This document shows positions 91 to 30,323 of a stretch of 30,396 nt of DNA, one piece after another (positions within the stretch are counted from its first letter, which is position 1; the number at the start of each line of letters is the position of its first letter). This DNA comes from Candidatus Auribacter fodinae (GTDB lineage: Bacteria > Auribacterota > Auribacteria > Auribacterales > Auribacteraceae). The stretch is taken from the NCBI GenBank assembly GCA_003599815.1, contig QZJZ01000101.1:1-30396 (forward strand), in the 5' to 3' direction. The notes under the pieces are model-generated. The model searched no databases. It was given only the letters and a program-made list of their open reading frames with translations, and was not told the DNA's origin. Made by a program: the position numbers and the translations under genes.

Positions 91-1626
91 TCAGATGTAA
101 AACATCCGGCCGGGAACAATATCGCTTTTCGGCCCCAGAGTAAAATAAAAGGTGCACCCATTGCCGGGCGAAGATTCCAGCCACACTTTACCGGAATGAA
201 TGGTAATAATTTTTTGTACAATGGCAAGCCCCAGCCCTGTCCCGCCGGGGTCAAGTTTAAAGAACAGTGAAAACAGGCGGTCATGATACTTCGGGTCAAT
301 GCCGCACCCGTTATCGCGCACATAATACGCTGTTTCGCCATTTTTCTGAATGATAGATCCTACATGTATGAGCAGGTTATCCCGTCCGCCATGGTCAACA
401 GCGTTGGCAATAAGGTTCATCATAACAACCATCAGTTTTTCCTTGTCAGCATATACATCAGGAAACGACTCATCGATACTGACCACTGCCCCTGCCGTAT
501 GTATTGCCCCTTCCAATTGCGAAACAGCGGCTACGACTATCTCCTTAAAAGACACCAGTTCCCGCTTCAGAGCGAGATATCCTGTTTTCTGGAGTTCAAG
601 CATATCCAGAATGGTCTTTTCCATACGGTTACAGACACTAATAATGCGCTCAGCTACCTCAAACGCATTATCAAACTGTTGTGCGTTCAGATGCCGTTTG
701 ACAAGAGCAATATATCCACGAATCGAAACCAGCGGCGATTTCAGGTCATGCGTAACAGTATATAGCAGTTCCCGCATATTTGATATCCGCTGTTCGCATT
801 GTTCATGCTGGTGGTTATCTTGTGTAATATTCTGAGCGACAAGCTGTACACCCACACTTTTCCCGAATTCGTGATAGGGAAAGAGCTCAACACTCCATTT
901 TTCCTCTGCCTGATGCGCATCATGAGCATGTACAGCCATCTCCACATGATCTTTGTTTTTATCAGTGAGATAAACCTGCAGACATGCCTCCTCAAACGCT
1001 TTCCAGCTCCATTCAGGCTGAACCGCACGCAGTTCCCTGATGGAATACGACGCGTCAAGCAGGTCAAGCCCGCACCACGGACGGTTCAGGGAGCTCAGTT
1101 CCCATGTACTGCTGTCGGCAGGGTCGCCAATCCGGATTGTCGCGTAGATATTTTTCCCTTCTTTGACGACACTCCGGTAATTTTTTTCAGATTGAAACAA
1201 TGAATCGAACGATTCGGCAAGTTCGGTGATGTCAATCATCATCTGAACCATTTTTGTCACTTTGCCGTCCCGATATTCCAAGGGAGATGATGCTATATCA
1301 AGCCATATAGGCTTGCCGTCAGCTGATTTGTGACAATGAACGGTATGAACGGTTTCGCCTGTTTCGATAACGGCACGAAAAGGGCATACATGTTCAACGC
1401 CATTCAGCTCATCGCACGGGCGGTCAACATTATGGCAGATAGTATAACATTTCTGCCCGATGATCTCATCTCTTGGCAAGCCGACACGTTGAAGAAACGA
1501 ATCGTTAGCCGCGACTATTATATAGTCATTGTCCACCACCATTATGTCGTGCATACTGGTAGAAATACTTTCCAGAAACGACATCATGGCAAAATTTTGA
1601 TACTCTTTGCCCTTAAGCAATTTCAT
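91..1626 (-). CDS. Soluble PAS-domain sensor histidine kinase. N-terminal PAS is Cys/His-rich; DHp H-box is HDLKSPLVSIRGY; C-terminal HATPase domain
   Basis: 511-aa ORF. H-box HDLKSPL is followed by a G-box region GTGLGLAIVQKI....GNGCTFYFTL. No TM segment at the N-terminus. ATG start has GGAGAAAT about 10 nt upstream. Confidence 0.85.
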   Translation of the reverse strand: MKLLKGKEYQNFAMMSFLESISTSMHDIMVVDNDYIIVAANDSFLQRVGLPRDEIIGQKCYTICHNVDRPCDELNGVEHVCPFRAVIETGETVHTVHCHKSADGKPIWLDIASSPLEYRDGKVTKMVQMMIDITELAESFDSLFQSEKNYRSVVKEGKNIYATIRIGDPADSSTWELSSLNRPWCGLDLLDASYSIRELRAVQPEWSWKAFEEACLQVYLTDKNKDHVEMAVHAHDAHQAEEKWSVELFPYHEFGKSVGVQLVAQNITQDNHQHEQCEQRISNMRELLYTVTHDLKSPLVSIRGYIALVKRHLNAQQFDNAFEVAERIISVCNRMEKTILDMLELQKTGYLALKRELVSFKEIVVAAVSQLEGAIHTAGAVVSIDESFPDVYADKEKLMVVMMNLIANAVDHGGRDNLLIHVGSIIQKNGETAYYVRDNGCGIDPKYHDRLFSLFFKLDPGGTGLGLAIVQKIITIHSGKVWLESSPGNGCTFYFTLGPKSDIVPGRMFYI

Positions 1627-1830
1627 ACAGCAATTTCTCCATAGGGTATCATCTTTGAGGGAAGCATAAATTATCTCTTTTATATATAAAACAGATTAAG
1701 AAGATCGCTATCGGGATTATTTTCAGCAAAATATATTCCAAAAAAACAATGCGCTTAGTGTCCCTTTCCGCTACAATATGCCGTATACCATATTGCCGTA
1801 GAGAGATACAAAAACACAAGGAGGCACGGA

Positions 1831-3669: not shown

Positions 3670-4485
3670 TTACTTTTTCTTTGGTACAGCCAGCCCGATA
3701 GCGGCTTCAGGCGTCAGAACCTGAAACGTAAACGACTCGGTAAAATACAGTTCCACGTTTTCACTGCAATGCGACTGGTACCCGATAGACAAATCCTGCC
3801 CGACAGTCATTTCAAAATCACCGCCCCTGCTTGACAACAGGACGCCTCCGTCAATCGCGAACGACAATACTATATGCCCGCCAAGCAGTTCTTTGATCCG
3901 CTGATACAAAGAGTATCCGCAGTCATGGGCTTTAAGGAGCATTTTGTATGGTTCGAATCCGAGAACCAGCGAATACGGGCCTCCGATGCCGCTGGCGCGT
4001 AACGCCGCCACTGCATCTTCGACAACACCCTGTAAATCGTCAATTTTCGACGGTAACTGAACCGGCGTATGCGGCGACGATTTAAGAATACCGGTCACAT
4101 TCGCATCCGTAAAACCTTGATAAACGACAGTATCTTCAAACAACGCCGCTTTTTTTGCCGCTGACAGCAACGATTCTAAATCAGGATTTTTCATGCCCCT
4201 GCTTATGTTGTCCAGTTCCCAGATATTCAGTTTAAACGGGATACGGTATTCGATCAGCGGTTGTATTTCGCGCAGTCCCCATTTTACTCCGGGTATCGGT
4301 TCCGACGGGTACACTTTCACCAGCCCTACCGCTACGCCGCTGTAATCCCAGCCGTGGGGACCGGAAAAATCAACCATTTTTCGTGCGGATAAGGTATCTT
4401 TAAGCGTCAGTTTCGCCTGCGATTCCAGTACAGACCATGCATCGGAGGTGATAGGCGCTATGCTTCGTTTCAATATATCACTCAT
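3670..4485 (-). CDS. enc: Family 1 encapsulin nanocompartment shell protein (HK97-fold, linocin M18-like)
   Basis: 271 aa. Near-colinear with the T. maritima encapsulin as I remember it: N-term ..LKRSIAPIT..W, GPxGWxY, KWGLR, PLIExR, WELDN, SRGGDF, ILGQDLSIGY, FTESFTFQV. Confidence 0.9.
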   Translation of the reverse strand: MSDILKRSIAPITSDAWSVLESQAKLTLKDTLSARKMVDFSGPHGWDYSGVAVGLVKVYPSEPIPGVKWGLREIQPLIEYRIPFKLNIWELDNISRGMKNPDLESLLSAAKKAALFEDTVVYQGFTDANVTGILKSSPHTPVQLPSKIDDLQGVVEDAVAALRASGIGGPYSLVLGFEPYKMLLKAHDCGYSLYQRIKELLGGHIVLSFAIDGGVLLSSRGGDFEMTVGQDLSIGYQSHCSENVELYFTESFTFQVLTPEAAIGLAVPKKK

Positions 4486-4489
4486 GATT

Positions 4490-4861
4490 TCAGTCTCCTT
4501 TCCTCAACGATTTAATCCCCAGATCACCGGAACTGCTTTTCGCCGGGGCAGGAGATGATTCCCCTGATGAAGTTTCCGCGTCTTCAATGTCCGTCACGGA
4601 TCCTTCGGTGAACAGGTACGTGCGCAGATTCGTATCGAATACAGGCGTTTTTCTTCGTATCCATTCGAGAGCCATACACGCGTGTTCGACTTCCTCATCC
4701 CTGTTATGCAAAAGAATTCCTTTCAGTTCCTGATCGTCAGTCACGTCCGCGCGCTGGTTATACCAGTTGACGGCTTCCAGTTCTTCTATCAGGCTGACAA
4801 TAGCCCGGTGAAAATTTTTTGCTTCGGATGACAACCCTTCCTCATGAAACGGTTCTGCCAT
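4490..4861 (-). CDS. Encapsulated ferritin-like protein (EncFtn / Flp cargo) with C-terminal encapsulin targeting peptide
   Basis: 123 aa. Ferritin-like four-helix motifs (EELEAVNWY, EEVEHACMALEWIRR). Ser/Pro/Ala-rich flexible linker followed by SGDLGIKSLRKGD, matching the encapsulin cargo-loading peptide consensus. 4-nt gap to the encapsulin start. Confidence 0.85.
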   Translation of the reverse strand: MAEPFHEEGLSSEAKNFHRAIVSLIEELEAVNWYNQRADVTDDQELKGILLHNRDEEVEHACMALEWIRRKTPVFDTNLRTYLFTEGSVTDIEDAETSSGESSPAPAKSSSGDLGIKSLRKGD

Positions 4862-5078: not shown

Positions 5079-5828
5079 TTATATTCCTGATGGGTCGATA
5101 TCGTTAATCACGGTATCTTCCGTAATCTGAAGTGTTTTCAGGATATGGGCGTCCATGGTGTATTCCGGGCGGTACGCATTGGTAATGGTGCTGGCAACAT
5201 CAAACGCCACCATCTGGGAGAAATACTGCATTGATACCATCATAACTTTCCAGTCCAGAAGCGGATGAGAATAGCGGAGATGACGGTAATAATAGTACCG
5301 CGCGAAATGTTCGACGTCGCGTGAGTTTCCGTCATATAGTTCGTTTATTGCCCACACAACAGTACCGGATGAAGCGTGTATCAGCTGAGCGCTTATACCA
5401 AGCGCGCATGGCTCGTACGGGTTATACCTCGTTATATGAGTAAACAGAATCGCGTCAGCGTTAAACCGACTGCCAAAATCAAAGATGCGTATTTTGTAGA
5501 ATTTCCCGTCACGGCGCACATTGACATCGTCAAATTCAGGGACAGCATATTCGGGAGTAGGCACGATTTCGAATTTATTAATTTTTGACAATTCCGCAAG
5601 AAAAACCGGCGCCAGTTTCGAGTCAACATCCAAAACGCTGGTCTCGTTCTTTATGGGAGCAAACAGCACGCGCCGTATCTTAAACGACGCATAGTCAGGA
5701 TGCATATAGATATTGGTTGACCGGTAAATCGGGTCATTCATCACATAGGCGGCTTTCATCCCCGCGGAATTACAACCGGAGAGGACGGGCACAAAAGATA
5801 ATATCAATACTAGGCATTTTTTCAGCAT
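5079..5828 (-). CDS. Lipoprotein of unknown function
   Basis: Signal peptide plus lipobox (VLSGC) at the N-terminus. 249 aa. No recognisable catalytic motif. Confidence 0.55.
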   Translation of the reverse strand: MLKKCLVLILSFVPVLSGCNSAGMKAAYVMNDPIYRSTNIYMHPDYASFKIRRVLFAPIKNETSVLDVDSKLAPVFLAELSKINKFEIVPTPEYAVPEFDDVNVRRDGKFYKIRIFDFGSRFNADAILFTHITRYNPYEPCALGISAQLIHASSGTVVWAINELYDGNSRDVEHFARYYYYRHLRYSHPLLDWKVMMVSMQYFSQMVAFDVASTITNAYRPEYTMDAHILKTLQITEDTVINDIDPSGI

Positions 5829-5991
5829 GAGTATCCCCTATAGTTATACGTTACACCGGGGGATAAGTTAGCATTTTTTATTCCAGCAAAAAGGAAAATC
5901 GACTACAGTCCATGCACGAACCTAAAAAGATATGCGGTATCATGATCGCAAAGGGAAAACCGGGCAATGACTGCATCAGGAAGCGAACCGT

Positions 5992-6474
5992 TTAATTGGA
6001 AGCGCCCATTTTCAATGCTACTTCAACAGAAAAGTCGCCTTCGTCCATGCTGAACGGAATAACAACACACACAACGTCTTTGGGATAATTGGTGTAGTGG
6101 TTTTTTCCGACACAAACAACGGGCAGGGCGATTTTAAAATTGAATCCCATCTGCGTGAGTTCGCCTTTTGCTCCGCCGGCAATCATATTGGCAATTTCGC
6201 CGACCGCGTCTTTGACATCGTCATTAATATCATCGACATCCATTCCCAGCATATTGCTGACAACCCTCAATACGACTTCTCTGGGAAAATTGATCGTAAC
6301 CGATCCGGTTGCGTCTCCGGCGACGCCAATGGTTCCTGATATTTCGCACCGCATCTTCTCTGTGCCCTTCAGGTACACCTTGCCAATTGCAGGACTGGTA
6401 GACGCCATAGTAGACAAGGCATTGAGCGTCGCGTTAATAAAGGGATTTATGTATTCAACTTTCATAGTTGACAT
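5992..6474 (-). CDS. cheX: Chemotaxis protein CheX (CheC/CheX/FliY family CheY-P phosphatase)
   Basis: 160 aa. INPFINATLNALSTM N-terminus and the DAVGEIANMIAGGAKG motif characteristic of CheX. 22 nt downstream of cheY. Confidence 0.8.
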   Translation of the reverse strand: MSTMKVEYINPFINATLNALSTMASTSPAIGKVYLKGTEKMRCEISGTIGVAGDATGSVTINFPREVVLRVVSNMLGMDVDDINDDVKDAVGEIANMIAGGAKGELTQMGFNFKIALPVVCVGKNHYTNYPKDVVCVVIPFSMDEGDFSVEVALKMGASN

Positions 6475-6496
6475 TGTACAGTATCCTCCAATCTCT

Positions 6497-6856
6497 CTAC
6501 TTTCCGATGACAGCCTCGATTTTACTCTTCAGAACCTCGGGAGTAAACGGTTTCACCACATAGTTGTTCACTCCGGATTTTATCGCTTCCACGATATCCT
6601 CTTTTCCCGCTTCAGTAGTAACCATGATAATAGGAATATGTTTATATGTCTGGCTGGCGCGTACAGATTTAACAAACGTCAGCCCGTCCATTTCAGGCAT
6701 GTTCCAGTCTGTGAAAATAAGGTCGATCCCATCAAGTTTGGATAACGCATCAAGACCGTGTTCGGCTTCAACGATATCTTCCATTCCAAGCCGGCTTAAG
6801 GTGTTCTTAATGATTCTCCGCATCGTCGATGAGTCATCAACGACAATAACTTTCAT
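6497..6856 (-). CDS. cheY: Chemotaxis response regulator CheY (single REC domain)
   Basis: MKVIVVDDSSTMRR..DWNMPEMDG..K; 120 aa from the ATG with an AGGAGGGAG RBS. The upstream in-frame extension in the ORF track is unlikely. Confidence 0.85.
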   Translation of the reverse strand: MKVIVVDDSSTMRRIIKNTLSRLGMEDIVEAEHGLDALSKLDGIDLIFTDWNMPEMDGLTFVKSVRASQTYKHIPIIMVTTEAGKEDIVEAIKSGVNNYVVKPFTPEVLKSKIEAVIGK

Positions 6857-6961
6857 CCTGACTCCCTCCTTTTGCATTTCTAGTGAATATATTAGTCATA
6901 ACACTGTAATCGGCGAATTATGATAAAAATCAAGATTTTTTTGACAGTACACGAGAATATC

Positions 6962-9403
6962 TTAGTTTTTAACTTTTTTTAAGCCTTCGATAACAATATA
7001 TCGTTCCAGATCCGTTAATATTTCAGGTTGAAGAGAGCTGAGTGCGCGATATGCTCCGGGTACACCTAATGAGCTCAGTGAAACCAGCGCGGAACGACGA
7101 ACACTGGGACAGTGGTCGTCTACCAGCAGAGTCAGGTATTTCACCGACCGTTCGTCCTTTATTTCACCGAGTACCCCTGCGGCAATACGCCTCAGATAGA
7201 ATTGAGTCGCGTGTATGAAGGTGTCCATTTCTTTATATATCAGATCACCCTTTTTAACCAGCGCGTGATACGCATGCGCCGTGTAAAAAGAATGTTTAAG
7301 ATACGGTAACAGCGATTTGATCGTTGTACAAGCTTTATTTCTGCCGAAAGCATCTATGACTGTCCTGACAACAGGATACCCAACTTCTTCAGTATTATAC
7401 TGCCCGTCATTCAAAATAGCACAGAGAATTTTTTCTACTAAAGGATAATTAAAGTTCGCCAGCGCCTCTATGGCGGATAGTTTCAGAAACCAATTCCGTG
7501 ACGACGCTTTTTCTCTCAGCCACGGCAACGACGGTTCGTAGTGCAGTTTGCCCATTAAAGATGCCACGTATCCCTGAACGTACGGATCCGGGACATACTG
7601 AAGTTTCTGAAGCCCGTGAATACTTTCCGTACTTTTGTAATTATAAAGAAGTTCTGCGGCCGCGATCTGAACTCTGCGGCTTTGCATGGTATCAAGGTAA
7701 TTCAGCACCATGTCGAGCACCCATTCACTGTCAATATGCCCCATGGCTTTGACCACATGATACTGAATTGCCTCATCATTGCTGTCAAGGCATCGGTCAA
7801 AAAGATCGACCAGTTCCTTATGTCCGCCATATAGAGAAGCCAGGGTTTCCAGCGCATGTCCGACTACCGGTGTGCTTCCTTCCCTGATAACATCCACCAG
7901 AGCCTGATACAGTTCAGGATTTCTCAGCTGAGGGTCAGCATTATTCCGGCAGATAGAATATATGGCTTTCAGCGCGGCTATTTTAACATAGTTTTCCGTA
8001 TCCCTGAGGTATTTGCTGATCACCGGCACCAAACGCGGCAGGCCCAACAGTGAAAAAACCTGCAGTACAGTCGCGCGGAGATGCGAATTCGCGTTTTTCA
8101 GGCGATCCCGCAACTTGCTCACGACGAGTTCGGTATCAGGATACGCCGCAAGATTACGGCCCGCCGTCACGCAGACAATCTCATCAGGGTCGTCAAGCAT
8201 TTTAACCATAAGATCAACCACCTGAGGCAGTTCGCATTTACCTGCCCATTCGGCGGCTTCACGCCTCACACAAATATCCATATCAGCTAGATGATTCGAA
8301 AAGCATGAAAGGACTTCTTCCGCCCGGTGTTGAGGAAAAAAATACATTTGCAGTCGCTGGCAGGGCACGGAATACGATTCGCACTCCTGCATATCAATAT
8401 CCGGTACAGTCGACGGATCGACAAGCCGGACGATCATCTCAAAAAATTCAGGACGCTTGTCCACCCATAGCAGGGCATTTTCAAAAGAGATAGACGCGTT
8501 CATACGTTTCAGTACCCAGAGCAGTATTTTTGCCGATTGTTTATTTTCGTCCGGCATCATTTCGCATATTACCTGCGCGACCCGCGGGGGCAAAGAGCTG
8601 AGCTGATTATTGAAATATTCAAGGACAATGCCGTCCTGCTGGTATTCCATGGCGTCAAAAATAGAAAATTCTATTTTATGCAGCGCGGCACATGCGGCAC
8701 GCACAGAGGCTGGCGATACTGAATCCGACTGCAGAAGTTCGCACAGCGGTTCCACGCATGACGGGTCAGCGACAAGACCCATATAGCATATGGCAAAGCG
8801 TCCAAGCACTTCGTGTTCAAGCATGCTCGCCATCTGGGGAATCAACGTTTCATCAGGCATGCACATAAGAGCGCTCATAACTAAAAACGCACGCCATGGA
8901 TCACTTTCGTTAATTTCGCGAAGTCTTTCTGATAGAATCGGTATAGAGTCTTTATTACAACAAGCGCCGATCGCTTCGTATATCAGGTCTCTGACCTTCT
9001 CATCTTTTTCATTTTCAAGAGCCGCAAGCAAATGGGGGTACGCGTTCGAGTCGCGGATATTGCCCAGCATTTGGATAGCGGACATGCGGTTTTTTTTGTC
9101 GGATGATTTCAGTTGCCCGGCAATAATTTCTATTGCCCGGTCGCCGAACTGATGCAGTATGAATTCAGCGGCCTGCTGTGTCGGCAGATCGGACTTATCC
9201 GCCCGGCTGACCAACTGCTCCAGCACCGTATCGGATACAGCGCTGTCATCGGAATGCGCATCATCCGCAGATGAACGCCCCCATTTGGCGACAAAATCAT
9301 TCATTAATTTATTATGCTGGAGACAGGGAAGCTGTACTATTAAATGATCGTCATCCAACGCGAATTTCAGGAACTCATTGATATGGGATGTATTATTTTT
9401 CAT
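6962..9403 (-). CDS. Large HEAT-repeat (PBS-lyase-like) protein
   Basis: 813 aa of repeated approximately 30-aa helical-hairpin units with a recurring E..V(R)..A..ALG.IG signature. No catalytic motifs. Confidence 0.75.
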   Translation of the reverse strand: MKNNTSHINEFLKFALDDDHLIVQLPCLQHNKLMNDFVAKWGRSSADDAHSDDSAVSDTVLEQLVSRADKSDLPTQQAAEFILHQFGDRAIEIIAGQLKSSDKKNRMSAIQMLGNIRDSNAYPHLLAALENEKDEKVRDLIYEAIGACCNKDSIPILSERLREINESDPWRAFLVMSALMCMPDETLIPQMASMLEHEVLGRFAICYMGLVADPSCVEPLCELLQSDSVSPASVRAACAALHKIEFSIFDAMEYQQDGIVLEYFNNQLSSLPPRVAQVICEMMPDENKQSAKILLWVLKRMNASISFENALLWVDKRPEFFEMIVRLVDPSTVPDIDMQECESYSVPCQRLQMYFFPQHRAEEVLSCFSNHLADMDICVRREAAEWAGKCELPQVVDLMVKMLDDPDEIVCVTAGRNLAAYPDTELVVSKLRDRLKNANSHLRATVLQVFSLLGLPRLVPVISKYLRDTENYVKIAALKAIYSICRNNADPQLRNPELYQALVDVIREGSTPVVGHALETLASLYGGHKELVDLFDRCLDSNDEAIQYHVVKAMGHIDSEWVLDMVLNYLDTMQSRRVQIAAAELLYNYKSTESIHGLQKLQYVPDPYVQGYVASLMGKLHYEPSLPWLREKASSRNWFLKLSAIEALANFNYPLVEKILCAILNDGQYNTEEVGYPVVRTVIDAFGRNKACTTIKSLLPYLKHSFYTAHAYHALVKKGDLIYKEMDTFIHATQFYLRRIAAGVLGEIKDERSVKYLTLLVDDHCPSVRRSALVSLSSLGVPGAYRALSSLQPEILTDLERYIVIEGLKKVKN

Positions 9404-9428
9404 TGTTGATCTATGCCGGTATCGGGTA

Positions 9429-10862
9429 TCACAAAGATACCCACTGTATTAAACGTACCTTTTCATCAAGGTAAAATTTCGTATATTTCATTTCTTCTTC
9501 AATAACCATCTTTTTCCCTTTTATGGAAATCTTCGATCCCGGATAGATGGTGCCGCGCACCTTGATAAAAGCAGGCTCACTGCTGATGGCAGACTCCAGT
9601 GCGGCATCACGTTCCGCAATAAGATCTTTTTTCTGCTGTTTCAACTGCTTGTACATATCAATAATCTTGCGCAGTTCAGCCGGCTGGTTCTGATAAAGAA
9701 CATCCAGAAACTCTTCAGGCATATTGCATATGCCTTCGCCCAGCGAATTCTGGATCTTCTCTATATTCTGTTCACAGAACTGTATTTTCTGAGATATTTC
9801 CTGAACGCGTTGTTTCAGCTCAGGCTGAACACCTGCTTCAAGAAAGGTTTCCGTGCCGGTAGGAGACCCGACATCCTTAACCATAATTTCCTTGCCTGCC
9901 GATGTCACGCCGCCAACGATTGTATCGTCCACTTGGATTCTGTCACACGCAATCAATTTACTGCCATAGACAGATTTTTTGACCATAATGGACTCTTCGC
10001 TGTACACGGTAGAATTCTGAATATAGCTCACCAGAATAGATCCGCCACATTTCACCACACTTTTATGCGACCCGACAATACCGCATTTAACCTTTAATGT
10101 GCCGCCGCACTCCACTGAAGCGTCAGTTACATTCTCACCAATATACACATCACCGCGTGCCTTGACATAAAAATCCGGTATCACTGAGCCCGTAACAGCG
10201 ACCGTGCCGGGAAAATCCACACAGCCGGTTTCAAAGTTGACATCGCCCTCTATCTGGCGCACACCAAGCACAGCCAGATAATTTTTCCGGTACATCAGCC
10301 TGCCGTCTATATTTGATATGTATACCTTTTTTTCTTCGTCAAATTCGACATTGTCTATTTGAATATTAAGCTTTTTTCCATGCTTTGATTTGACAGGGTT
10401 ACCATCAACAAGAATACCATCTTCACCAAGAGTCGGGTCATGATGACGCGCGATCATCTGCCCCTTTTTTATTTTAATGATGGTTTCTTTTTGTTTGTAA
10501 TCTATACTTCCGTCTTCTTTTTCCTTGCCGACAGACTGAACCACGGTATTGACCAGCATTTCAACACGCCCGTCTTTACCGTCTTTAGGCGGGGTACCCA
10601 CAGCAACGCGGATGTTCTCGAGGTTATCGCCGCTTTCTGCGAGTTTTCTTGATATTTCGCTCAGCATCGGGAACTTAATACCATGCACAACACCAAAATC
10701 AACCAGCTTATCTTTCAGTTCAAGAGGAGAAACAGTAATTGGTTCCCCATTTTTCGGATACACACTTAAAACAGCCTGCATCTTATCATGAGAAACCTTG
10801 ATTACGAATTTCGTCTCTTTTTGTGAGGATGTGGTATTTAAACGTTGATCGAGATGTTCCAT
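9429..10862 (-). CDS. FapA-family (DUF342) protein: N-terminal domain, right-handed beta-helix repeats and C-terminal coiled coil
   Basis: 477 aa. Repetitive G-rich beta-helix-like segment (GTVAVTGSVI..VKARGDVYIGENV..GGTLKVKCGIVG..). Coiled-coil tail. Sits in a cluster with cheY/cheX. Confidence 0.65.
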   Translation of the reverse strand: MEHLDQRLNTTSSQKETKFVIKVSHDKMQAVLSVYPKNGEPITVSPLELKDKLVDFGVVHGIKFPMLSEISRKLAESGDNLENIRVAVGTPPKDGKDGRVEMLVNTVVQSVGKEKEDGSIDYKQKETIIKIKKGQMIARHHDPTLGEDGILVDGNPVKSKHGKKLNIQIDNVEFDEEKKVYISNIDGRLMYRKNYLAVLGVRQIEGDVNFETGCVDFPGTVAVTGSVIPDFYVKARGDVYIGENVTDASVECGGTLKVKCGIVGSHKSVVKCGGSILVSYIQNSTVYSEESIMVKKSVYGSKLIACDRIQVDDTIVGGVTSAGKEIMVKDVGSPTGTETFLEAGVQPELKQRVQEISQKIQFCEQNIEKIQNSLGEGICNMPEEFLDVLYQNQPAELRKIIDMYKQLKQQKKDLIAERDAALESAISSEPAFIKVRGTIYPGSKISIKGKKMVIEEEMKYTKFYLDEKVRLIQWVSL

Positions 10863-10918
10863 TGTTTATGTTCCGATCCTGAGCCGTCTGTTCCGCTGTG
10901 CCGCGCGAAACCGGGTTA

Positions 10919-11257
10919 TTAGACTGTAAAACTTGCTACTGCCTCATCTTCGTTCTGATAAATGTCAAATACCTTGCGCAGGTTGGTAAAACTGAACAAA
11001 TCTTCAAGTTGAGGCTGTAACGCGCAGAGTTTCAGGTTTCCACCGCTGGCGTTCGCCAGTTTGTACAAGGCGATAAGTTCACGGAGGCCGGCGCTGTTGC
11101 TGTAACTCAATTCCTTGAAATCAAGAACGATGTTCACCTTTTCTGATTCAATAAGTTTTTCAATGTTTTTGCGAAGGTATTCCGAGCTTTCATTATCCAG
11201 TTCACCCTTGAGATGGACGACAGAAACCTCGAGATTGCTTTTTGTCGTAATTTCCAT
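10919..11257 (-). CDS. STAS-domain anti-sigma-factor antagonist (SpoIIAA/RsbV-like)
   Basis: 112 aa. LDFKELSYSNSAGLREL carries the conserved phosphorylatable Ser region. AGGAGG RBS. Confidence 0.8.
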   Translation of the reverse strand: MEITTKSNLEVSVVHLKGELDNESSEYLRKNIEKLIESEKVNIVLDFKELSYSNSAGLRELIALYKLANASGGNLKLCALQPQLEDLFSFTNLRKVFDIYQNEDEAVASFTV

Positions 11258-11304
11258 GTGCGATTCCTCCTATTGTATCTGAACTTTACGTTATGATCGT
11301 ATCG

Positions 11305-12177
11305 TCAGCGGGTTGACCATACCCCGCTATCCATTTGCCGGGTACCGTCCCCTGCATTTTTCGCTTTGGCATATTTAACCAGCATTACTTCGTTGCCTTT
11401 ATCGTTGTAGTACACTTCATCCATATAGTAACTGATTAACAATACACCCCGCCCTCCCTCACGGTGGAGGTTGCTCGGATCTTTCGGATCCGGTACTTGC
11501 GAGACATCAAACCCCGGGCCTTCGTCACGAATCGTGACCATCAGTTTCTGCGGCGAGATCTGAGTCCTTATTTTTACCTTTTTATCAATATTGCTGTGAT
11601 TGCCATGTTTGATAGCGTTGTTAAGCGCTTCATCAATGGCAAGTTTCACCCGCATGGAAAACTCGTCTTCAGGAAACCCCAACTGCCGGGCTCCCTGATA
11701 AATATGATGAATTACACTACGGATGAGCATAACATCGCTCGGCATATCGAAACTCATTTCAACAGTCAGAAACGGGAGCACTTCTTTCTGTTTATCGGAA
11801 AATTTCTTAACCTCAAGCCCTTTTTTGACAATGCGCGTCAACTCTTCGATTTCAAACGGTTTGCGGCAGAAGTTAAATGCTCCGCTTTTCAACGCTTTGA
11901 CCGCTATTTCCTCGTTGCCGCCGCCGGTTATCACAATAACCGGTAAATCAGGCGATATCCTTTTTATCTCTTCCATAAGGACAATACCGTTCATCCCCGG
12001 CATATTCACATCAGTGATTACCAAATCAAAGGCATTTGCCCGCAAGGTTTCCAGAGCAGAAGCGCCGTTTAACACAGTAGTGACCGCACAGTTCTGCCTG
12101 TTCAGAATATCTTTAAGCAAACAACAGATGAGTTCATCGTCATCTACAACAAGAATGTGTCCAAGAACCTGATCCAT
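11305..12177 (-). CDS. Response-regulator receiver domain fused to an RsbW/SpoIIAB-like anti-sigma serine kinase (HATPase_c_2)
   Basis: N-terminal REC (VVDDDE..D..NMPGMNG..K). C-terminal LAIDEALNNAIKHGN plus DEGPGFD and GRG motifs typical of partner-switching kinases. Confidence 0.8.
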   Translation of the reverse strand: MDQVLGHILVVDDDELICCLLKDILNRQNCAVTTVLNGASALETLRANAFDLVITDVNMPGMNGIVLMEEIKRISPDLPVIVITGGGNEEIAVKALKSGAFNFCRKPFEIEELTRIVKKGLEVKKFSDKQKEVLPFLTVEMSFDMPSDVMLIRSVIHHIYQGARQLGFPEDEFSMRVKLAIDEALNNAIKHGNHSNIDKKVKIRTQISPQKLMVTIRDEGPGFDVSQVPDPKDPSNLHREGGRGVLLISYYMDEVYYNDKGNEVMLVKYAKAKNAGDGTRQMDSGVWSTR

Positions 12178-12354
12178 TAAATCTCTTCGCTTTTATACAT
12201 TATTTTTTCTGTTACATACCATGAACGCATGATTCAAGCTGGTTTAAACTAGTAACAATATCGGCAGGCTGGATTTATTACTTTAGTAACAGATTGCGCT
12301 TTCGTGACAAGATATTTACGCACGGGCAATTTTCAGGGAAAACAAGGTAAAGAG

Positions 12355-14766: not shown

Positions 14767-14873
14767 CTAAAAGAGAACCTATCGATCAATCCTGACTTTT
14801 CTTTTCGGTTAGAGTTTCATTGAACGGGGTGCAGATTATAGTTATATTTCAGCACGTTCAAAGGAGAAAGATA

Positions 14874-15137
14874 ATGAAAAAATTTAATACGCTGTTTGCC
14901 GCTGTAATGATTGGACTGCTTCTGTTTTCCGGTTGTGCTCGCGATACAGTCGTAAGAAAAGAAACTACCCACACACCAGATGGTGACGTTATTATTGAAG
15001 AAGAAATCGTGACCAGAGAAAAGGACGACGGTTTTCGCGACGACCCAAGCATTCTCGGAGCAGTTTTCTTTGTTATCGGAGAAGTAGTGGCTTTACCGTT
15101 CAGAATTGTTGGCGGCGCGTTTGACTTAATCTTTTAG
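14874..15137 (+). CDS. Small lipoprotein (88 aa from the internal ATG with AAGGAGAAAG RBS)
   Basis: MKKFNTLFAAVMIGLLLFSGC gives a signal peptide plus lipobox. The ORF-track start at 14820 lacks an RBS. Confidence 0.5.
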   Translation: MKKFNTLFAAVMIGLLLFSGCARDTVVRKETTHTPDGDVIIEEEIVTREKDDGFRDDPSILGAVFFVIGEVVALPFRIVGGAFDLIF

Positions 15138-15163: not shown

Positions 15164-15190
15164 ATTAATTGGGGACACATCCCAATTTTA
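15164..15190. repeat. Left terminal inverted repeat / subterminal hairpin of the transposase element
   Basis: AATTAATTGGGGACACATCCCAATTTT. Its reverse complement matches 15894-15923 at 18 contiguous positions plus flanking AATTAA. Confidence 0.6.
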
Positions 15191-15856
15191 GTCTGATTTT
15201 TTGGGGCGTCCTACGGGGCGTTTGGTTAAGTCTCTTTTTGTCAGCTTCATTACTTTTTCATAGAAACGCATGGAACCTATCGGATAACCTCTGCTCGTTG
15301 ACCGTGATATCATCTCATATTGACCTGAATTCGGCGGTAACTTTAAAAACTCAAGATATTCTTCCCGATTAGCATATTCAGGAAAAATATCGTCCAGAAA
15401 TTCCGGGGTTTTTCCTGATACCCGATACTTTGCGCTTCCCCACTCATATTGTTCCGGCTGACCCACTATCCCGGCACGCACGGCATTTCGCTCGATATAT
15501 CGGCACACCGCTAACAAATACGTGTCTGTTTCCACCGGCGACGAAAAAAACCTGCATTCCCATAACCTGCCGGTTCGCTTGTATTTGTCATTGGCGTACT
15601 GCGTGTATTTTAAAGCAACTTTCTGCATGAACTTAGACAACGATTCCGCCTTCAAGGGAATTATTAAAAGATGCACATGGTTATCCATCAAGCAATACGA
15701 CAAAACCTTGCACTCGGTATCCTGCTTGTATCGTTGGACTAAAGCGAGGTATTCCTGGCGATCCTGATCGTCTTCGAAGATCGCCTGTTTGTTGTTCCCT
15801 CGTTGGACAACATGATGAGGGTAATCTGGTATAATAATGCGTGGTATTCTTGCCAT
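15188..15856 (-). CDS. IS200-like / REP-associated tyrosine (Y1, HuH) transposase
   Basis: MARIPRIIIPDYPHHVVQRGNN.. followed by the HuH motif MDNHVHLLI and catalytic Tyr context RYIERNAV. Likely ATG at 15856; the ORF-track start at 15880 is a TTG. Confidence 0.8.
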   Translation of the reverse strand: MARIPRIIIPDYPHHVVQRGNNKQAIFEDDQDRQEYLALVQRYKQDTECKVLSYCLMDNHVHLLIIPLKAESLSKFMQKVALKYTQYANDKYKRTGRLWECRFFSSPVETDTYLLAVCRYIERNAVRAGIVGQPEQYEWGSAKYRVSGKTPEFLDDIFPEYANREEYLEFLKLPPNSGQYEMISRSTSRGYPIGSMRFYEKVMKLTKRDLTKRPVGRPKKSD

Positions 15857-15893
15857 AAATACATAGTATGAGCCGATCAAAAAGTTGTCAAGA

Positions 15894-15923
15894 AAAATTG
15901 GGATGTGTCCCTAATTAAAATTG
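15894..15923. repeat. Right terminal inverted repeat / subterminal hairpin of the transposase element
   Basis: AAAATTGGGATGTGTCCCTAATTAAAATTG; inverted copy of 15164-15190. Confidence 0.6.
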
Positions 15924-16277
15924 TTTTTGAATGATAGGGGCAACAGTTTCTTTATCTATTCCGTTATTCTTACAATATTGCGAATTGAGCCAATCAGAAA
16001 GAATTTTCGTTCCCTTGCTTGAGTTACAAGAAGAACAACATAAAGCAATATTTTCTCTGGTAATAATGCCTGCATCGTTTATGATATGTTCCCATGTTGC
16101 CACATTTTTTCTAGAGCAACCACGAGGAACAGATTCAAGAAGTTCAACACCACAATAAACACAAAATTTATCCCTCTCGCGCACTTCTCTCTCGAGCCAT
16201 TCAGGGATACCCCAAGCATTACTCATTTTTCCACACTCCCGACATCTGTTTGAGACTAAAATACTGACAGACACCAT
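15915..16277 (-). CDS. Small stand-alone HNH endonuclease
   Basis: CVYCG...WEHIIN...N..LCCSSCNSSKG is the CxxC...H..N...CxxCN..K(G) HNH core. Start is ambiguous: ATG at 16277, or ATG at 16226 with a GGGAG RBS. The stop lies inside the right IR of the neighbouring element. Confidence 0.65.
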   Translation of the reverse strand: MVSVSILVSNRCRECGKMSNAWGIPEWLEREVRERDKFCVYCGVELLESVPRGCSRKNVATWEHIINDAGIITRENIALCCSSCNSSKGTKILSDWLNSQYCKNNGIDKETVAPIIQKQF

Positions 16278-25808: not shown

Positions 25809-26402
25809 ATGGGTATAGAACAATTACCAGCATTTATTCGTGATAACTACGAAATACATGAAAAGAATCATGCCTGCGCGATTCTAAAAGAAGATTTTCC
25901 TTGCGAATGGAACGATCTAATTGATCTGCTAACAGAATTTCGCCTCAAAAGAAGCTGGATAATCAATCCCGGGGGAAGTAAATCAAAAGTATCAAGCCAC
26001 ATTGATGATTTTCTATCCGAGCGTGGGTGGAAAGAAAAACAATTTCAGACACAGATTGTAATTGACGAAGTAACAACAGAAACACCGACGCATAAGATTG
26101 ATTGTTTTAAAAACAGAGTCGCCTTGGAAATTGAATGGAACAACAAAGATCCTTTTTTTGACCGCGATTTAAATAATTTCAGGCTCCTTTTTGATCTCCG
26201 TGCGATCAGCATAGGCATAATAATCACACGATGCGATGAGTTACAGAATATCTTTAATACATTAGGCAGAGGAAGTTCATACGGAGCATCCACAACTCAT
26301 ATTGGTAAATTAATCCCAAAAATCAATGGCGGCGGCAGTGCCGGATGCCCTCTTTTAGTCTTTGGAATAAAACGCGCTCTTTATTTGGAGGATATAGAAT
26401 GA
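25809..26402 (+). CDS. Putative Type II restriction endonuclease (PD-(D/E)xK-like, BglII/BamHI-type spacing)
   Basis: 197 aa. Candidate active site KID...(9)ALEIEW has the D-x9-E-x-E spacing seen in BglII/BamHI-type enzymes. Low GC. Stop overlaps the start of a DNA methyltransferase. Confidence 0.5.
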   Translation: MGIEQLPAFIRDNYEIHEKNHACAILKEDFPCEWNDLIDLLTEFRLKRSWIINPGGSKSKVSSHIDDFLSERGWKEKQFQTQIVIDEVTTETPTHKIDCFKNRVALEIEWNNKDPFFDRDLNNFRLLFDLRAISIGIIITRCDELQNIFNTLGRGSSYGASTTHIGKLIPKINGGGSAGCPLLVFGIKRALYLEDIE

Positions 26403-27073
26403 CATCGCCCGCTTCTCGCGATTTATTACAGTCCGTTGGAGATAGAAAATTTTCTACAGTATTGGCTGATCCTCCATGGCAGTTTAAAAATCGTACAGGA
26501 AAAATGGCTCCTGAACATAAACGTCTTCAACGCTACCCTACAATGACCTTAAGCGAAATTAAAGAATTGCCGGTACAGTCAATCGTCACGGAAACCGCCC
26601 ACTTATATTTATGGGTGCCCAATGCCCTCCTTGCCGAAGGGTTAGAAGTTATGAAGAGTTGGGGCTTTGAATATAAAACGAATATCATCTGGTACAAAGT
26701 GCGTAAGGACGGCGGACCTGATAGAAGAGGTGTCGGCTTTTATTTCAGAAATGTGACTGAAATGGTGCTTTTCGGCACAAGAGGAACAGGCGCCCGAACT
26801 CTCCAAGCCGGGCGGAGTCAGGAAAACGTTATCATTTCACAAAAGCGCGAACACAGCAGAAAACCAGATGAACAATATAAGCTGATTGAGTCATGCAGTA
26901 GATCTCCATTTATCGAGCTGTTTGCTCGCGGTTCCCAGCCAAACTGGTTCTCGTGGGGCAACCAGGCACAAAGCTATTCCCCTGATTGGCCAACATACAG
27001 CAATCATTCCCAGGCAAACATGCTGGAATTCGAACAAAATTCGTTTTGTTTAAATTCAACAGCAACAAAATGA
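26399..27073 (+). CDS. MT-A70-family (M.MunI-like) N6-adenine DNA methyltransferase
   Basis: DPPWQF catalytic motif near the N-terminus. HLYLWVPN, IIWYKVRK and the MVLFGTRGTG SAM-binding motif follow in the circularly permuted order typical of MT-A70. GGAGG RBS. ATGA overlap with the upstream ORF. Confidence 0.8.
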   Translation: MTSPASRDLLQSVGDRKFSTVLADPPWQFKNRTGKMAPEHKRLQRYPTMTLSEIKELPVQSIVTETAHLYLWVPNALLAEGLEVMKSWGFEYKTNIIWYKVRKDGGPDRRGVGFYFRNVTEMVLFGTRGTGARTLQAGRSQENVIISQKREHSRKPDEQYKLIESCSRSPFIELFARGSQPNWFSWGNQAQSYSPDWPTYSNHSQANMLEFEQNSFCLNSTATK

Positions 27074-27202: not shown

Positions 27203-28252
27203 ATGTCTAAACATTTAGCCGTATTATTATCGCTTATCGTTGCCTTTGTATGTGCGGGGTGCGACAACTCCGGACAGCCTCCGGATACCGGTACATGCAC
27301 ACATAATCCTGCGTGCAAACATCTTACCGGCAAAAAAATTCTGTACGTCGACTCATACGATCCCGATTACCTGCACAGCAAAATAATACGCCTTTCCGCA
27401 AAAAGCATTCTGGAAGACAGGGAATTAACCTATAAAGCAGTGTTTCTCGATGAAAAACATCTCAAAGGCGACGAAGCGCTCACCCAATCAGCTCTTGCCG
27501 CCAAACAGGTTATCGATGAATGGAAACCCGACATAATTATCGCCGCGGATGACCCTGCCAACAAGTACCTGATTGCCCCGTACTATCGAAACACAGAACT
27601 GCCTGTCGTCTTTGTCGGTGTCAACTGGAGCGCGGATGAGTATGGGTATCCTTGTTCAAACATCACAGGGCAACTGCAGGTTGAGTTTATTGAAGGCCTG
27701 ATTGCCGAACTGTTCAAATACGCTTCCGGACGCCGGATCGGCATTATCACCGGAGATTCTCTGACACAGCATAAACTGATACATTTTTACGAAAACAATA
27801 TGGATATTCTGTTTACAGAAAAATACTTCGCCTCATCGTTCGAAGAATGGAAGCAACGCTACACACGTATGCAGAGCAATGTTGACATCCTCATTGTCTG
27901 GAACTACGATGCCATTTCCGGCTGGAACGATGAGGAAGCAATAGCATTCATCATGGAAAACACCACCGTCCCGACAGGAAGTATCCCTTTGCACATGGCG
28001 CCGTTTGTGCTCATAAACTATTCCAATGTCCCGATGGAGCTGGGCGAATACGCCGCGCGGACAGCAATCCGTATTTTAAACGGCACAAAACCAGCTGATA
28101 TACCCGTTACGCGAAATAATCAATTAAAAGTTTACCTTAATATGAAGCTAGCCAAACGGCTTAACATAAAATTTTCCATGGATCTGATTAAACGGGCGAA
28201 TTTTGTCAGTGAAAATCATTTAAACAGTGCGAAAAAAAATGTGTCAAAATAG
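27203..28252 (+). CDS. Periplasmic substrate-binding lipoprotein, PF04392/COG2984-type (ABC_sub_bind family)
   Basis: Lipobox (VCAGC). Conserved C-terminal ...AIRILNGTKPADIPV...KVYLNMKLAKRLNI.. signature of the PF04392 family. 349 aa. Confidence 0.7.
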   Translation: MSKHLAVLLSLIVAFVCAGCDNSGQPPDTGTCTHNPACKHLTGKKILYVDSYDPDYLHSKIIRLSAKSILEDRELTYKAVFLDEKHLKGDEALTQSALAAKQVIDEWKPDIIIAADDPANKYLIAPYYRNTELPVVFVGVNWSADEYGYPCSNITGQLQVEFIEGLIAELFKYASGRRIGIITGDSLTQHKLIHFYENNMDILFTEKYFASSFEEWKQRYTRMQSNVDILIVWNYDAISGWNDEEAIAFIMENTTVPTGSIPLHMAPFVLINYSNVPMELGEYAARTAIRILNGTKPADIPVTRNNQLKVYLNMKLAKRLNIKFSMDLIKRANFVSENHLNSAKKNVSK

Positions 28253-28380
28253 TCTAAAAAAACGCTGTCTTTGTTTTTTAAAAGAAATAAATCTTTTATG
28301 GCAATATTCTTTACTATACAATAAAAAGGAAGATAATTAGGGATTCCAGCGCGGAATTTAACTTTTGACCTTTGTGTTGT

Positions 28381-29406
28381 ATGTACAGGAATTTCACTTA
28401 TTTTTTATGTTGCGGATTTGCTGTCCTGTGGGGATGTACCGATCCTGTAACCGATCGGCAAAACGATTCTCACGAGAACGCCGCGCTCATAAATCCGCTG
28501 GCAGGGAAAAAAGTTTTGTATGTGGATTCGTATCATCCTGAATACATGCATAGCAAAATCGTTATGCACACGACAAGAAAAATACTTACAGATCAGGGAA
28601 TCATCTTGAAGGTTATATATCTTGACGCGAAACGAAAAAAAAGCGACGAACAGCTCACACGGGCCGGATTGGCCGCAAAACAGGTTATAGACGAATGGAA
28701 GCCTGACCTTGTTATCGCCGCGGACGATGCCGCCAGCAAATATCTTATCGCTCCGTATTACCGAAATAGCTCCCTGCCTGTAGTTTTTGTCGGTATAAAC
28801 TGGGACGCTGAACCGTACGGATATCCTCTGCCCAATGTCACCGGGCAGATCGAAATCGAGTTTGTTGAAGGGCTAATATCCGAACTGCTGAAATACGCTA
28901 AGGGTGACCGCATCGGCATCATCATGGGCAACACCCTGACACAGAAAAAGATATTCTCTCATTACACGCAGAAATTACATATTAGTTTCGCGCAACAGGC
29001 CGCGGTGGATACATATGAAGAATGGAAACAGCACTATATCCAGATCCAAAAACACGTTGACCTTTTGATCGTATGGAACAATGCCGGCATTGAAGGCTGG
29101 GACGACAATGACGCAAAATCTTTTATTGAAAACAACACTGTTATTCCCACAGGCAGTTTTCCTATTCATATGGCTCCTTTTGTCCTGATGAACTATTCGA
29201 ATGTATCAACTGAATTCGGCGAGTATGCCGCAAAAACAGCAATCCGCATTTTAAACGGCACGCTTCCGTCCGATATACCCCTTACAAAGAACGCTCAGTT
29301 AAAAGTATATTTGAATATGCGGCTTGCAAAAAAGCTGAACATTATATTCCCCATGGATCTTATAAGGCGTTCAAATTTTGTGCAGGAGAGGCATCTCGAA
29401 GAATGA
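28381..29406 (+). CDS. Paralogous PF04392/COG2984-type periplasmic substrate-binding lipoprotein (tandem duplicate)
   Basis: About 65-70% identical over most of its length to the 27203-28252 product (KKxLYVDSY.P.Y.HSKI...AAKQVIDEWKPD...APYYRN..LPVVFVG.NW). Lipobox LWGC. ATG at 28381 preferred over the TTG at 28372. Confidence 0.7.
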   Translation: MYRNFTYFLCCGFAVLWGCTDPVTDRQNDSHENAALINPLAGKKVLYVDSYHPEYMHSKIVMHTTRKILTDQGIILKVIYLDAKRKKSDEQLTRAGLAAKQVIDEWKPDLVIAADDAASKYLIAPYYRNSSLPVVFVGINWDAEPYGYPLPNVTGQIEIEFVEGLISELLKYAKGDRIGIIMGNTLTQKKIFSHYTQKLHISFAQQAAVDTYEEWKQHYIQIQKHVDLLIVWNNAGIEGWDDNDAKSFIENNTVIPTGSFPIHMAPFVLMNYSNVSTEFGEYAAKTAIRILNGTLPSDIPLTKNAQLKVYLNMRLAKKLNIIFPMDLIRRSNFVQERHLEE

Positions 29407-30323
29407 AAATAAATACCATCAATACAAAGATACTTATGATAATAGCGTCCGCCTTCATAATAATGACATTAAGCATTTACCTGTTCGCGTCGCATTACCT
29501 GAAAAGTATGATCGACGGGTATCAGGAAAGCGTCTATTCGGAAAAAATCGACACTATTCTTGATATGCTGGAACGCAAATACGAACATCTCACTGAAACA
29601 TTTCTCATTGATGCCTACGAAGAAGATTTCAAACAATCGTTTCTTGAAGATTTCCGGTCATCATATTTCACCGGCAATGACCAAAAGGTATATCCTTTCA
29701 TACTGGATTCAAAAGGGAAATGCATGATTGACGCCGGAATGAACGGCAAATCGTGCCCGCCTAAGGAAAAAAGTTTTTTTGCGGAAGTGAAAAATGAGAA
29801 AAAAGGGTCGTTTGAGTATGCTTTCAAAGGGTCAGCCTACTGGGTCATAAAAAGGCATTTCCCTCAATGGGACTGGTACATCGGGTATATTGTGCCTCTT
29901 TCAGTAAAATACACTCACTTTTACTCGTTCCGGGATATTCTTGCCATGATTATGGCTGTAACAACCGTTCTGGCTCTATTTATTGTATCCCTGCTTGTCA
30001 CCAACTTTACAAAACCGATTTACCAGCTCACAAAAGCCTCGCTGGCGCTCTCTTCCGGCAACCTTGATTACCCCATGAAAGTGAATTCTTCTGATGAAAC
30101 AGGCATACTGACGCAATCATTTTTATCGATGCGCGACGCTATCCGTAAAACCATCCGTGACTTAAACGAGAAAAACACCATCCTCACACAGGAAATAGCT
30201 GAAAGAAAACGTATAGCCCATGCCCTCAAAGACAGCGAGCAGAGATACCGCCTGCTTGTTGAAAACCAGAATGATCTTGTCATTAAATTTGATACCAGCT
30301 GTTCATGCTCAGTAATTAGGTAA
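29403..30323 (+). CDS. Membrane sensor protein: TM1, periplasmic Cache-like domain, TM2, HAMP, coiled coil and the first residues of a PAS domain. Ends prematurely with no output domain
   Basis: Two TM helices bracket an approximately 150-aa extracytoplasmic domain. The HAMP-like segment after TM2 is followed by RYRLLVENQNDLVIKFD (PAS start), then a stop 10 codons later. ATGA overlap with the upstream binding-protein gene. Confidence 0.6.
   Translation: MKINTINTKILMIIASAFIIMTLSIYLFASHYLKSMIDGYQESVYSEKIDTILDMLERKYEHLTETFLIDAYEEDFKQSFLEDFRSSYFTGNDQKVYPFILDSKGKCMIDAGMNGKSCPPKEKSFFAEVKNEKKGSFEYAFKGSAYWVIKRHFPQWDWYIGYIVPLSVKYTHFYSFRDILAMIMAVTTVLALFIVSLLVTNFTKPIYQLTKASLALSSGNLDYPMKVNSSDETGILTQSFLSMRDAIRKTIRDLNEKNTILTQEIAERKRIAHALKDSEQRYRLLVENQNDLVIKFDTSCSCSVIR

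Follow-up and report, generated by a model that had tools for sequence, protein, structure and literature searches.

The 30,396-nucleotide (nt) stretch of DNA analysed here, called the window throughout, spans positions 1 to 30,396 of contig QZJZ01000101.1 of Candidatus Auribacter fodinae and carries a cassette of six closely spaced genes on its minus strand. In order, these encode a receiver domain joined to an RsbW-like serine kinase, a STAS protein, a FapA/DUF342 protein, a large HEAT-repeat protein, CheY and a CheX-type phosphatase of phosphorylated CheY (CheY-P) (Table 1). The gaps from the kinase gene through the CheX gene are 47, 56, 25, 84 and 22 nt. Domains were called with Pfam and NCBIfam on translated open reading frames (ORFs), and the scan of the window took in every non-overlapping ORF of 100 amino acids (aa) or more except one, together with three shorter ORFs. 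The first-pass annotation had described six same-strand, closely spaced genes with these domains, and each was recovered where it had been placed, with Pfam and NCBIfam in agreement; the FapA, STAS, HATPase_c_2, CheX and receiver matches all passed their family thresholds. The gene for ribosomal protein L28 lies outside the cassette at its 5' boundary, and its intrinsic terminator is predicted to isolate the cassette from upstream transcription. No convincing terminator was found inside the cassette, where generic scans returned promoter-like (20 compared to 16.7 expected) and terminator-like elements (7 compared to 6.9) at chance frequency.

Table 1. Features of the cassette and its borders (coordinates refer to the window).
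Feature	Position	Strand	Remarks
Ribosomal protein L28 gene	12688..12455	minus	Pfam Ribosomal_L28 4.7e-13; 5' boundary, outside cassette
Intrinsic terminator of L28 gene	12389..12363	minus	10-bp stem, 7 G-C pairs, then T8
Sigma-28 (FliA/SigD)-type promoter	12285..12258	minus	consensus match, 80 nt 5' of kinase ATG
Receiver + RsbW-like kinase	12177..11305	minus	290 aa; Pfam Response_reg 2e-31, HATPase_c_2 2e-25
STAS protein	11257..10919	minus	112 aa; Pfam STAS 3e-20
FapA/DUF342 protein	10862..9429	minus	477 aa; FapA_N 2.5e-35, FapA 3.4e-57
HEAT-repeat protein	9403..6962	minus	813 aa; nine HEAT_2 stretches, 3.6e-57
CheY	6877..6497	minus	126 aa; Response_reg
CheX-type CheY-P phosphatase	6474..5992	minus	160 aa; Pfam CheX 3.7e-28
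Sigma-54-like -24/-12 element TGGAAT-N5-ATGCT	5885..5870	minus	CheX-lipoprotein gap
Lipoprotein gene	5828..5079	minus	lipobox LSGC; absent from the first-pass list

The conservation of this arrangement was scored with phmmer and hmmsearch in the neighbourhoods of FapA orthologues, which represent 11 distinct lineages, the window included. The kinase-STAS-FapA trio was present in all 11 with gaps of 20-77 nt, FapA directly following STAS each time (gap 20-62 nt). Downstream genes could be scored in ten lineages, as the contig of L012 ends just after FapA; this lineage groups with those that carry the trio only. All six genes in the same order, followed by the lipoprotein gene, were found in five lineages (window, L036, L037, L002 and L014). 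L004 had the same content without the HEAT gene, and in four lineages (L001, L015, L039 and L040) the trio stood alone, with unrelated genes after it. CheY and CheX, which always co-occurred, were present in six of the ten scoreable lineages and absent from four, with the lipoprotein gene always alongside. The HEAT gene was present in five and absent from five, and wherever present it lay between FapA and CheY. The first-pass annotation had staked its proposal on the gene order being kept in relatives, and the full order was repeated in four lineages besides the window, in which FapA was 47-60% identical and the flanking genes differed. Its treatment of the six genes as one indivisible unit did not hold up, as the trio persists where HEAT, or CheY and CheX, are missing.

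In block-bearing lineages the upstream neighbour was L28 or AhpC and the downstream neighbour encapsulin or adh_short/ThiI; L28 was also the upstream neighbour in L001, L004, L039 and L040. Since these flanks differ while the order of the block is kept, the block is not mere inherited background synteny. The trio-only lineages, whose STAS proteins are 68-75% identical to that of the window, formed one clade (bootstrap 91; neighbour-joining on the three shared proteins), so the HEAT-CheY-CheX-lipoprotein block was probably lost once, as a unit. The cassette is thus modular, with a kinase-STAS-FapA core and with CheY, CheX and the lipoprotein travelling together.

A second constant feature lies upstream of the trio. 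The sequence TAAAGTAATAAATCCAGCCTGCCGATAT, located between the L28 terminator and the kinase ATG, consists of TAAAGTAA-N12-GCCGATAT, in short TAAAGT-N-GCCGATAT, and its two core elements are TAAA and GCCGA. It matches the sigma-28 (FliA/SigD) consensus TAAA-N15/16-GCCGATA(A/T), also written TAAA(GTTT)-N11-12-GCCGATAA/T. The strict motif matched once in the window, counting both strands (0.06 expected), and once in 25 unrelated control loci (814 kb counting both strands). The relaxed motif TAAA-N14-17-GCCGA was present upstream of the kinase gene in 11/11 lineages, with eight other matches in 348 kb, and when the 11 upstream regions were aligned, TAAA and GCCGA were the sole invariant columns. 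All six CheY/CheX-bearing lineages have a perfect -10 element at the equivalent position. From the conservation of this sigma-28-type promoter in all 11 lineages, we infer that the operon belongs to a flagellar-type late regulon.

Similar elements were seen at two other places. In the HEAT-CheY gap (window 6878..6961; 66-84 nt across the window, L036, L037, L002 and L014) there is a shared CGATA/CCGAT element, GCCGATTA in the window, which may be a weak internal sigma-28 promoter. This CGATA-like -10 remnant is all that the gaps share and has no consistent -35, and we do not claim a second sigma-28 promoter 5' of CheY. About 3 kb downstream of the cassette in L002 and L037 is a receiver-HDOD gene; in L002 a strict TAAA-N16-GCCGATAT motif (11145-11172) lies 19 nt before its ATG, and a weaker TAAC...tCCGATAT occupies the same place in L037, upstream of 14271.

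The kinase protein consists of a receiver domain (residues 8-117) and a HATPase_c_2 domain (148-268) only. In the 11-lineage alignment, the HATPase_c_2 domain keeps its N-box (DEAxxNAIxHGN), G1 (D(E/Q)GxGFD) and G2 (GGRG) motifs, and the receiver keeps its Thr, its Lys, the acidic pocket and, within TDVNMPGM, the Asp that would accept the phosphoryl group. Against TIGR00377, the anti-sigma factor antagonist model (cutoff 53.45), the STAS protein reached 86.7 bits, and its predicted phosphorylatable Ser55, in a DSSG-like loop, is invariant in the 11 lineages and aligned with S58 of SpoIIAA and S56 of RsbV. From these conserved residues, both proteins look functional. Neither the kinase protein, the rest of the window nor the gene tables of any lineage within ~10 kb showed a PP2C domain, and Hpt domains were likewise absent from the window and from the flanks of orthologous loci; a PP2C phosphatase for the switch may be encoded elsewhere.

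The receiver-HATPase_c_2 architecture is common. It gave 623 matches, many of them in Planctomycetota and some fused to STAS; in two kinase homologues, P0070 and P0077, one polypeptide carries STAS, HATPase_c_2 and receiver domains, so that kinase and presumed substrate are naturally fused. Among solved proteins, PDB 9qih 'SenB' (304 aa, E = 3.9e-32) alone matched the receiver as well as the HATPase_c_2 part; it is about 30% identical to the kinase, by eye over the alignment. Selenoneine SenB and Shigella senB, known from the literature, are unrelated to this 'SenB'.

The FapA protein matched FapA_N with 121.9 bits (Pfam cutoff 27) and the FapA beta-solenoid with 194.6 bits (cutoff 31). In the protein search, its orthologues formed 11 protein clusters of 46-97% identity, all 472-487 aa long, and beyond them identity was 33% or less. 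A profile-against-PDB search found no solved FapA relative. Scanning metagenomes of the Joint Genome Institute (JGI) with the FapA alignment returned two loci, both from lineages already counted, and no contigs of the Ace Lake Auribacterota.

Of the chemotaxis proteins, CheX scored 97.8 bits (Pfam cutoff 27), and its active-site D-x3-E-x2-N motif, DAVGEIAN, is invariant in six lineages. The best NCBIfam match of CheY was PRK10610 (128 bits, under the 189-bit equivalog cutoff). CheY was 48% identical to E. coli CheY, and its phospho-site and switch residues, the equivalents of D12, D13, D57, T87, Y106 and K109, are all conserved. The true start of CheY is probably Met8 (position 6856, giving 119 aa), because all orthologues begin MK(V/I/F)IV at the residue matching the window Met8; the HEAT-CheY gap would then be 105 nt instead of 84. 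CheA, CheW and methyl-accepting chemotaxis proteins (MCP) were found neither in the window nor in the flanks.

The HEAT protein evolves very fast. Mean pairwise identity across lineages was 78% for STAS, 67% for the kinase, 52% for FapA, 80% for CheY, 66% for CheX and 47% for the lipoprotein, and 32% for the HEAT protein; relative to the window protein it was 26-29% identical in lineages where CheY was 82-91% identical. A search of 5.8 billion proteins returned only four weak relatives outside the lineage; the self match had 100% identity to an NCBI entry of a Candidatus Auribacter fodinae metagenome-assembled genome. As the HEAT protein matched only itself and these four repeat proteins, it was dropped as a synteny anchor, and FapA and the kinase were used instead. 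The HEAT gene is best read as an optional, fast-evolving insert. In L039, a different HEAT_2-repeat gene lies ~9.6 kb downstream of the trio (16688-17035, minus strand; 465 aa, cut by the locus end), and hmmsearch showed it not to be orthologous to the cassette gene.

The lipoprotein, present in the six lineages with CheY and CheX and absent from the trio-only clade, has no Pfam match of its own, and its family has 735 relatives in 1.84 billion representatives. A single-sequence AlphaFold2 model was discarded (predicted local distance difference test score, pLDDT, 37), and a model from a 50-sequence alignment reached a pLDDT of 88.8. The top Foldseek matches of this model were the PelC dodecamer rings and GNA1162, followed by FlgT, the Vibrio LPHT ring, TolB-N, CsgG and LpoB; weak Pfam matches in relatives of the lipoprotein point to the clan of these fold matches. 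The model thus predicts a PelC/GNA1162/FlgT-type fold, and the lipoprotein may serve either a flagellar outer ring or polysaccharide export. A sigma-54-like TGGAAT-N5-(A/T)TGCT element was found in the gap before the lipoprotein gene in five of the six lineages that have the gene; these are five of the nine matches in 348 kb. In the window alone the element was not significant (2 matches compared to 0.76 expected). Its place in the CheX-lipoprotein gap suggests a separate promoter, and the lipoprotein gene is probably its own transcription unit. The other window match, TGGAATATATTTTGCT (1725..1740, minus strand), lies ~100 nt upstream of a PAS-HisKA-HATPase histidine kinase gene (1626..91).

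Taken together, these observations led us to read the cassette as a late-motility operon with a sigma-28-type promoter, built around a receiver-gated partner switch that would act on FapA or possibly on sigma-28; we put the probability of this reading at about 0.5. We infer the protein-protein steps, the input kinase and the output of the proposed switch. An unlinked histidine kinase or Hpt protein would phosphorylate the receiver Asp of the kinase, the receiver state would set kinase phosphorylation of Ser55 on STAS, and the phosphorylation state of STAS would decide which partner it holds. FapA would be the likeliest partner, released or sequestered in a phosphorylation-dependent manner much as Vibrio FapA is with dephospho-EIIAGlc, and its control would tune flagellar assembly or polar placement. 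The invariant module would thus comprise the receiver-gated RsbW-type serine kinase, its STAS substrate and FapA, and the optional module the HEAT-repeat scaffold, CheY and CheX, with the separately promoted PelC/FlgT-fold lipoprotein after them. CheY and CheX, expressed from the same promoter, would be the usual output and reset components of chemotaxis, and the HEAT protein could be a CheY-side adaptor, by analogy with a haloarchaeal HEAT_PBS protein.

We favour FapA as the candidate partner since no other gene accompanies the kinase/STAS pair in every lineage, a choice that agrees with the phosphorylation-dependent binding of Vibrio FapA. The first-pass annotation had named the HEAT protein or FapA as the target; FapA, the sole constant companion of the pair, is plausible, and the HEAT protein is a poor candidate for an obligatory target, since it is absent from five of ten lineages while the trio persists. 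Its proposal that the branch serves motility and not general stress agrees with the sigma-28-type promoter in 11/11 lineages, the true CheY, the CheX with an intact motif and the flagella reported for the metagenome-assembled genome (MAG; PMC9324843). The MAG of A. fodinae is reported to encode flagella and those of Ace Lake Auribacterota do not (PMC9324843).

Several points weigh against this reading. Locally the switch is incomplete, since no lineage encodes a PP2C, an Hpt protein or a histidine kinase within about 10 kb. A kinase homologue of 40% identity (P0055, L043) has neither a STAS nor a FapA gene beside it. No STAS or RsbW-type gene was found at any of 24 FapA loci from other phyla, confining the pairing to one clade. 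FapA is a candidate partner by adjacency only. The promoter call is a consensus match, with sigma-28 itself known from neither the window nor the flanks, and the trio-only clade combines a perfect TAAAGTTT with a degenerate -10, GCCGA(C/T/A)(T/G)(T/A), for example GCCGAcTT.

The closest analogue among known systems is HptB-HsbR-HsbA of Pseudomonas (PMC5085249; bioRxiv 10.1101/2021.08.29.457346). In both cases a response regulator with an RsbW-type kinase domain is matched by a single-domain STAS protein as its substrate, predicted as such here. In Pseudomonas, hsbR, hsbA and hptB belong to the flagellar cluster, surrounded by chemotaxis as well as flagellar genes (PMC5085249; bioRxiv 10.1101/2021.08.29.457346), and the output is motility, through FlgM/FliA and the non-sigma partner HsbD. 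HsbR has a PP2C domain and an adjacent Hpt gene, whereas the cassette has neither; the Pseudomonas module has no FapA gene and its gene order differs. The hsbA promoter of P. putida is sigma-70-like in appearance, compared to the sigma-28-type promoter of the cassette. The RsbW/RsbV and SpoIIAB/SpoIIAA modules of Bacillus resemble the cassette in the HATPase_c_2 N, G1 and G2 boxes, in the equivalent position of the STAS phospho-Ser and in an operon driven by an alternative-sigma promoter (apparently so in the cassette). Unlike them, the cassette has its kinase fused to a receiver, FapA instead of a sigma factor as the third gene, and no linked PP2C.

FapA has been studied in Vibrio (pmid 27218601; pmid 31058375; PMC6877527), where the protein belongs to the same FapA_N + FapA family as the cassette protein, is about 60 kDa (477 aa in the cassette) and binds dephospho-EIIAGlc only (PMC6877527). 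There, the phosphorylation state of a small phospho-carrier decides the availability of FapA; the carrier is a protein of the phosphotransferase system, whereas the candidate in the cassette is STAS. A more general view, which we hold only tentatively, is that FapA-family proteins are effectors set by small phospho-carriers, so that in Auribacterota STAS takes the role of Vibrio EIIAGlc and FapA is the direct, non-sigma output of a receiver-gated switch with a sigma-28 promoter of its own. If true, it would be the first demonstrated case of a partner switch that targets a flagellar assembly or placement factor in place of a sigma or anti-sigma factor. A partner-switch STAS protein with a non-sigma partner is known from All4160 (PMC13555669).

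FapA genes elsewhere have other companions. In three Clostridia-type loci FapA lies immediately 3' of sigD/fliA (L006:8199-10404, L007:8157-10629 and L008:8210-10587, the last with a 4-nt overlap of the two genes), the pair standing at the end of a large operon with flhA-flhF-flhG-cheB-cheA-cheW-cheC-cheD. These loci link FapA to sigma-28 and to che genes, one of which encodes a CheC/CheX-family phosphatase, but unlike in the cassette FapA follows the sigma gene directly and there is no STAS/RsbW pair. At 11/11 Lachnospiraceae loci (L016-L021, L023, L024, L027, L028 and L035), a ~660-aa FapA adjoins a gene for a 355-357-aa receiver-domain protein; the two such proteins checked, those of L016 and L019, combine a receiver with an HD-GYP phosphodiesterase. 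FapA-family genes thus seem to be repeatedly paired with receiver-domain signalling proteins. Two FapA homologues, P0024 and P0025 (645-653 aa), have an N-terminal Jag_N domain.

Sigma factor, PP2C, CheA/CheW/MCP and flagellar structural domains were absent among the window ORFs scanned, and Sigma70_r2/r4 and sigma-54 domains from the window and the flanks; sigma genes were matched only in the Clostridia-type loci. The first-pass statement that no sigma factor is encoded nearby therefore stands, but it does not imply, as the annotation concluded, that the target of the pair is probably a non-sigma one. In classical partner-switch operons such as rsbV-rsbW-sigB and spoIIAA-AB-AC, transcription depends on the very sigma factor under control. 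With its sigma-28-type promoter the cassette has this autoregulatory layout, and a sigma-28 or FlgM encoded elsewhere is a serious candidate. HsbA, for comparison, binds FlgM and frees FliA and also partners HsbD (PMC5085249). The main alternative, which we consider doubtful, is that the kinase/STAS pair regulates an unlinked sigma-28, and that FapA, HEAT, CheY and CheX are co-expressed regulon members and not targets. Either the RsbW-like domain would be an anti-sigma-28 factor relieved by unphosphorylated STAS, or STAS would titrate FlgM as HsbA does. The placing of the hsb genes in the Pseudomonas flagellar cluster, the score of STAS above the curated cutoff for anti-sigma factor antagonists and the physical coupling of FapA to sigD/fliA in the Clostridia-type loci all favour such a target. 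However, neither a sigma factor nor FlgM turned up in the window or, in any of the 11 lineages, within about 10 kb, the kinase-to-STAS order is the reverse of the antagonist-to-kinase order of the classical operons, and the invariant third place of FapA is left unexplained.

A fully integrated branch of six proteins, in which CheY-P or CheX feeds the switch or the reverse and the HEAT protein is scaffold or target, is unlikely. Five lineages do share the strand, the short gaps and a single upstream promoter footprint, the HEAT gene always lies between FapA and CheY, and CheY-dependent motor switching in haloarchaea requires a HEAT_PBS protein whose gene lies next to che genes (PMC2666748). However, L004 keeps the other five genes without HEAT, and a whole clade keeps the trio without HEAT, CheY and CheX. 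The identities of 26-29% for HEAT and 82-91% for CheY are also unlike those expected of a hub with several conserved contacts. The haloarchaeal protein OE2401F (PMC2666748) resembles the cassette HEAT protein in being HEAT-repeat-only, beside che genes, fast-evolving and hard to trace by orthology; it is archaeal, much smaller and works with CheF at the archaellum, and the likeness lies in the repeat type only.

Least probable, and by a wide step very improbable, is a non-flagellar cassette, in which the motif is read by another sigma factor or is no promoter, and the trio governs a different process at the pole or envelope, such as exopolysaccharide export through the PelC-like lipoprotein. 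Sigma-28-family factors do act in non-flagellates such as Chlamydia, and as WhiG in Streptomyces. The best structural matches of the lipoprotein are the PelC exopolysaccharide-export rings, one FapA homologue lies near ftsA/ftsZ and recG with no motility genes nearby, and most described Auribacterota MAGs lack flagella (PMC9324843), but A. fodinae is the one reported flagellate among them, the operon includes the motility components CheY and CheX, both flagellar sigma consensus hexamers are matched as the sole invariant upstream columns, and FapA orthologues occur in 11 protein clusters only at 46% identity or more, the pattern of a patchy and not a housekeeping trait.

The late-motility operon with a partner switch acting on FapA would be a variant of known motility control and not a new kind, in an arrangement found in one clade only. 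FapA/DUF342 proteins are widespread in flagellated bacteria, their mechanism is understood in Vibrio only, and partner-switching modules are increasingly found to act on non-sigma targets. The invariant trio and its flagellar-type promoter thus provide a testable hypothesis for FapA control outside Vibrio, and the cassette offers a minimal receiver-gated switch without a fused phosphatase that can be compared with HsbR/HsbA. The comparative data put STAS, the kinase and FapA ahead of HEAT as the genes of interest. The one-clade distribution in uncultured organisms limits the impact.

The rest of the scanned window is unrelated to the cassette and holds an encapsulin pair, a nitrilase-family hydrolase, HIT, an IS200 transposase, ClpB, HtpX, GpsA and a BglII restriction-modification pair; ORF 14820..15137 has no Pfam match. 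An origin of the cassette as a mobile element or defence system was dismissed, as no domains support it and its GC content is the same as that of the flanks. Directly downstream of the cassette (3670..4861, minus strand), an EncFtn cargo gene is followed by an encapsulin (Linocin_M18) shell gene, a pair repeated in L036. An IS200/Y1-type transposase gene adjoins a small HNH endonuclease gene at 15188..16277 (minus strand). At 25809..27073 (plus strand), the gene for a BglII-family restriction endonuclease overlaps that for an MT-A70 methyltransferase, in a low-GC setting (34-43% at 21-26 kb). Finally, 27203..30323 (plus strand) carries two tandem genes for PF04392 ABC-type substrate-binding proteins and then a 306-aa Cache/HAMP ORF, whose stop lies 73 nt before the window end and which may be a sensor with its output domain missing or separately encoded.

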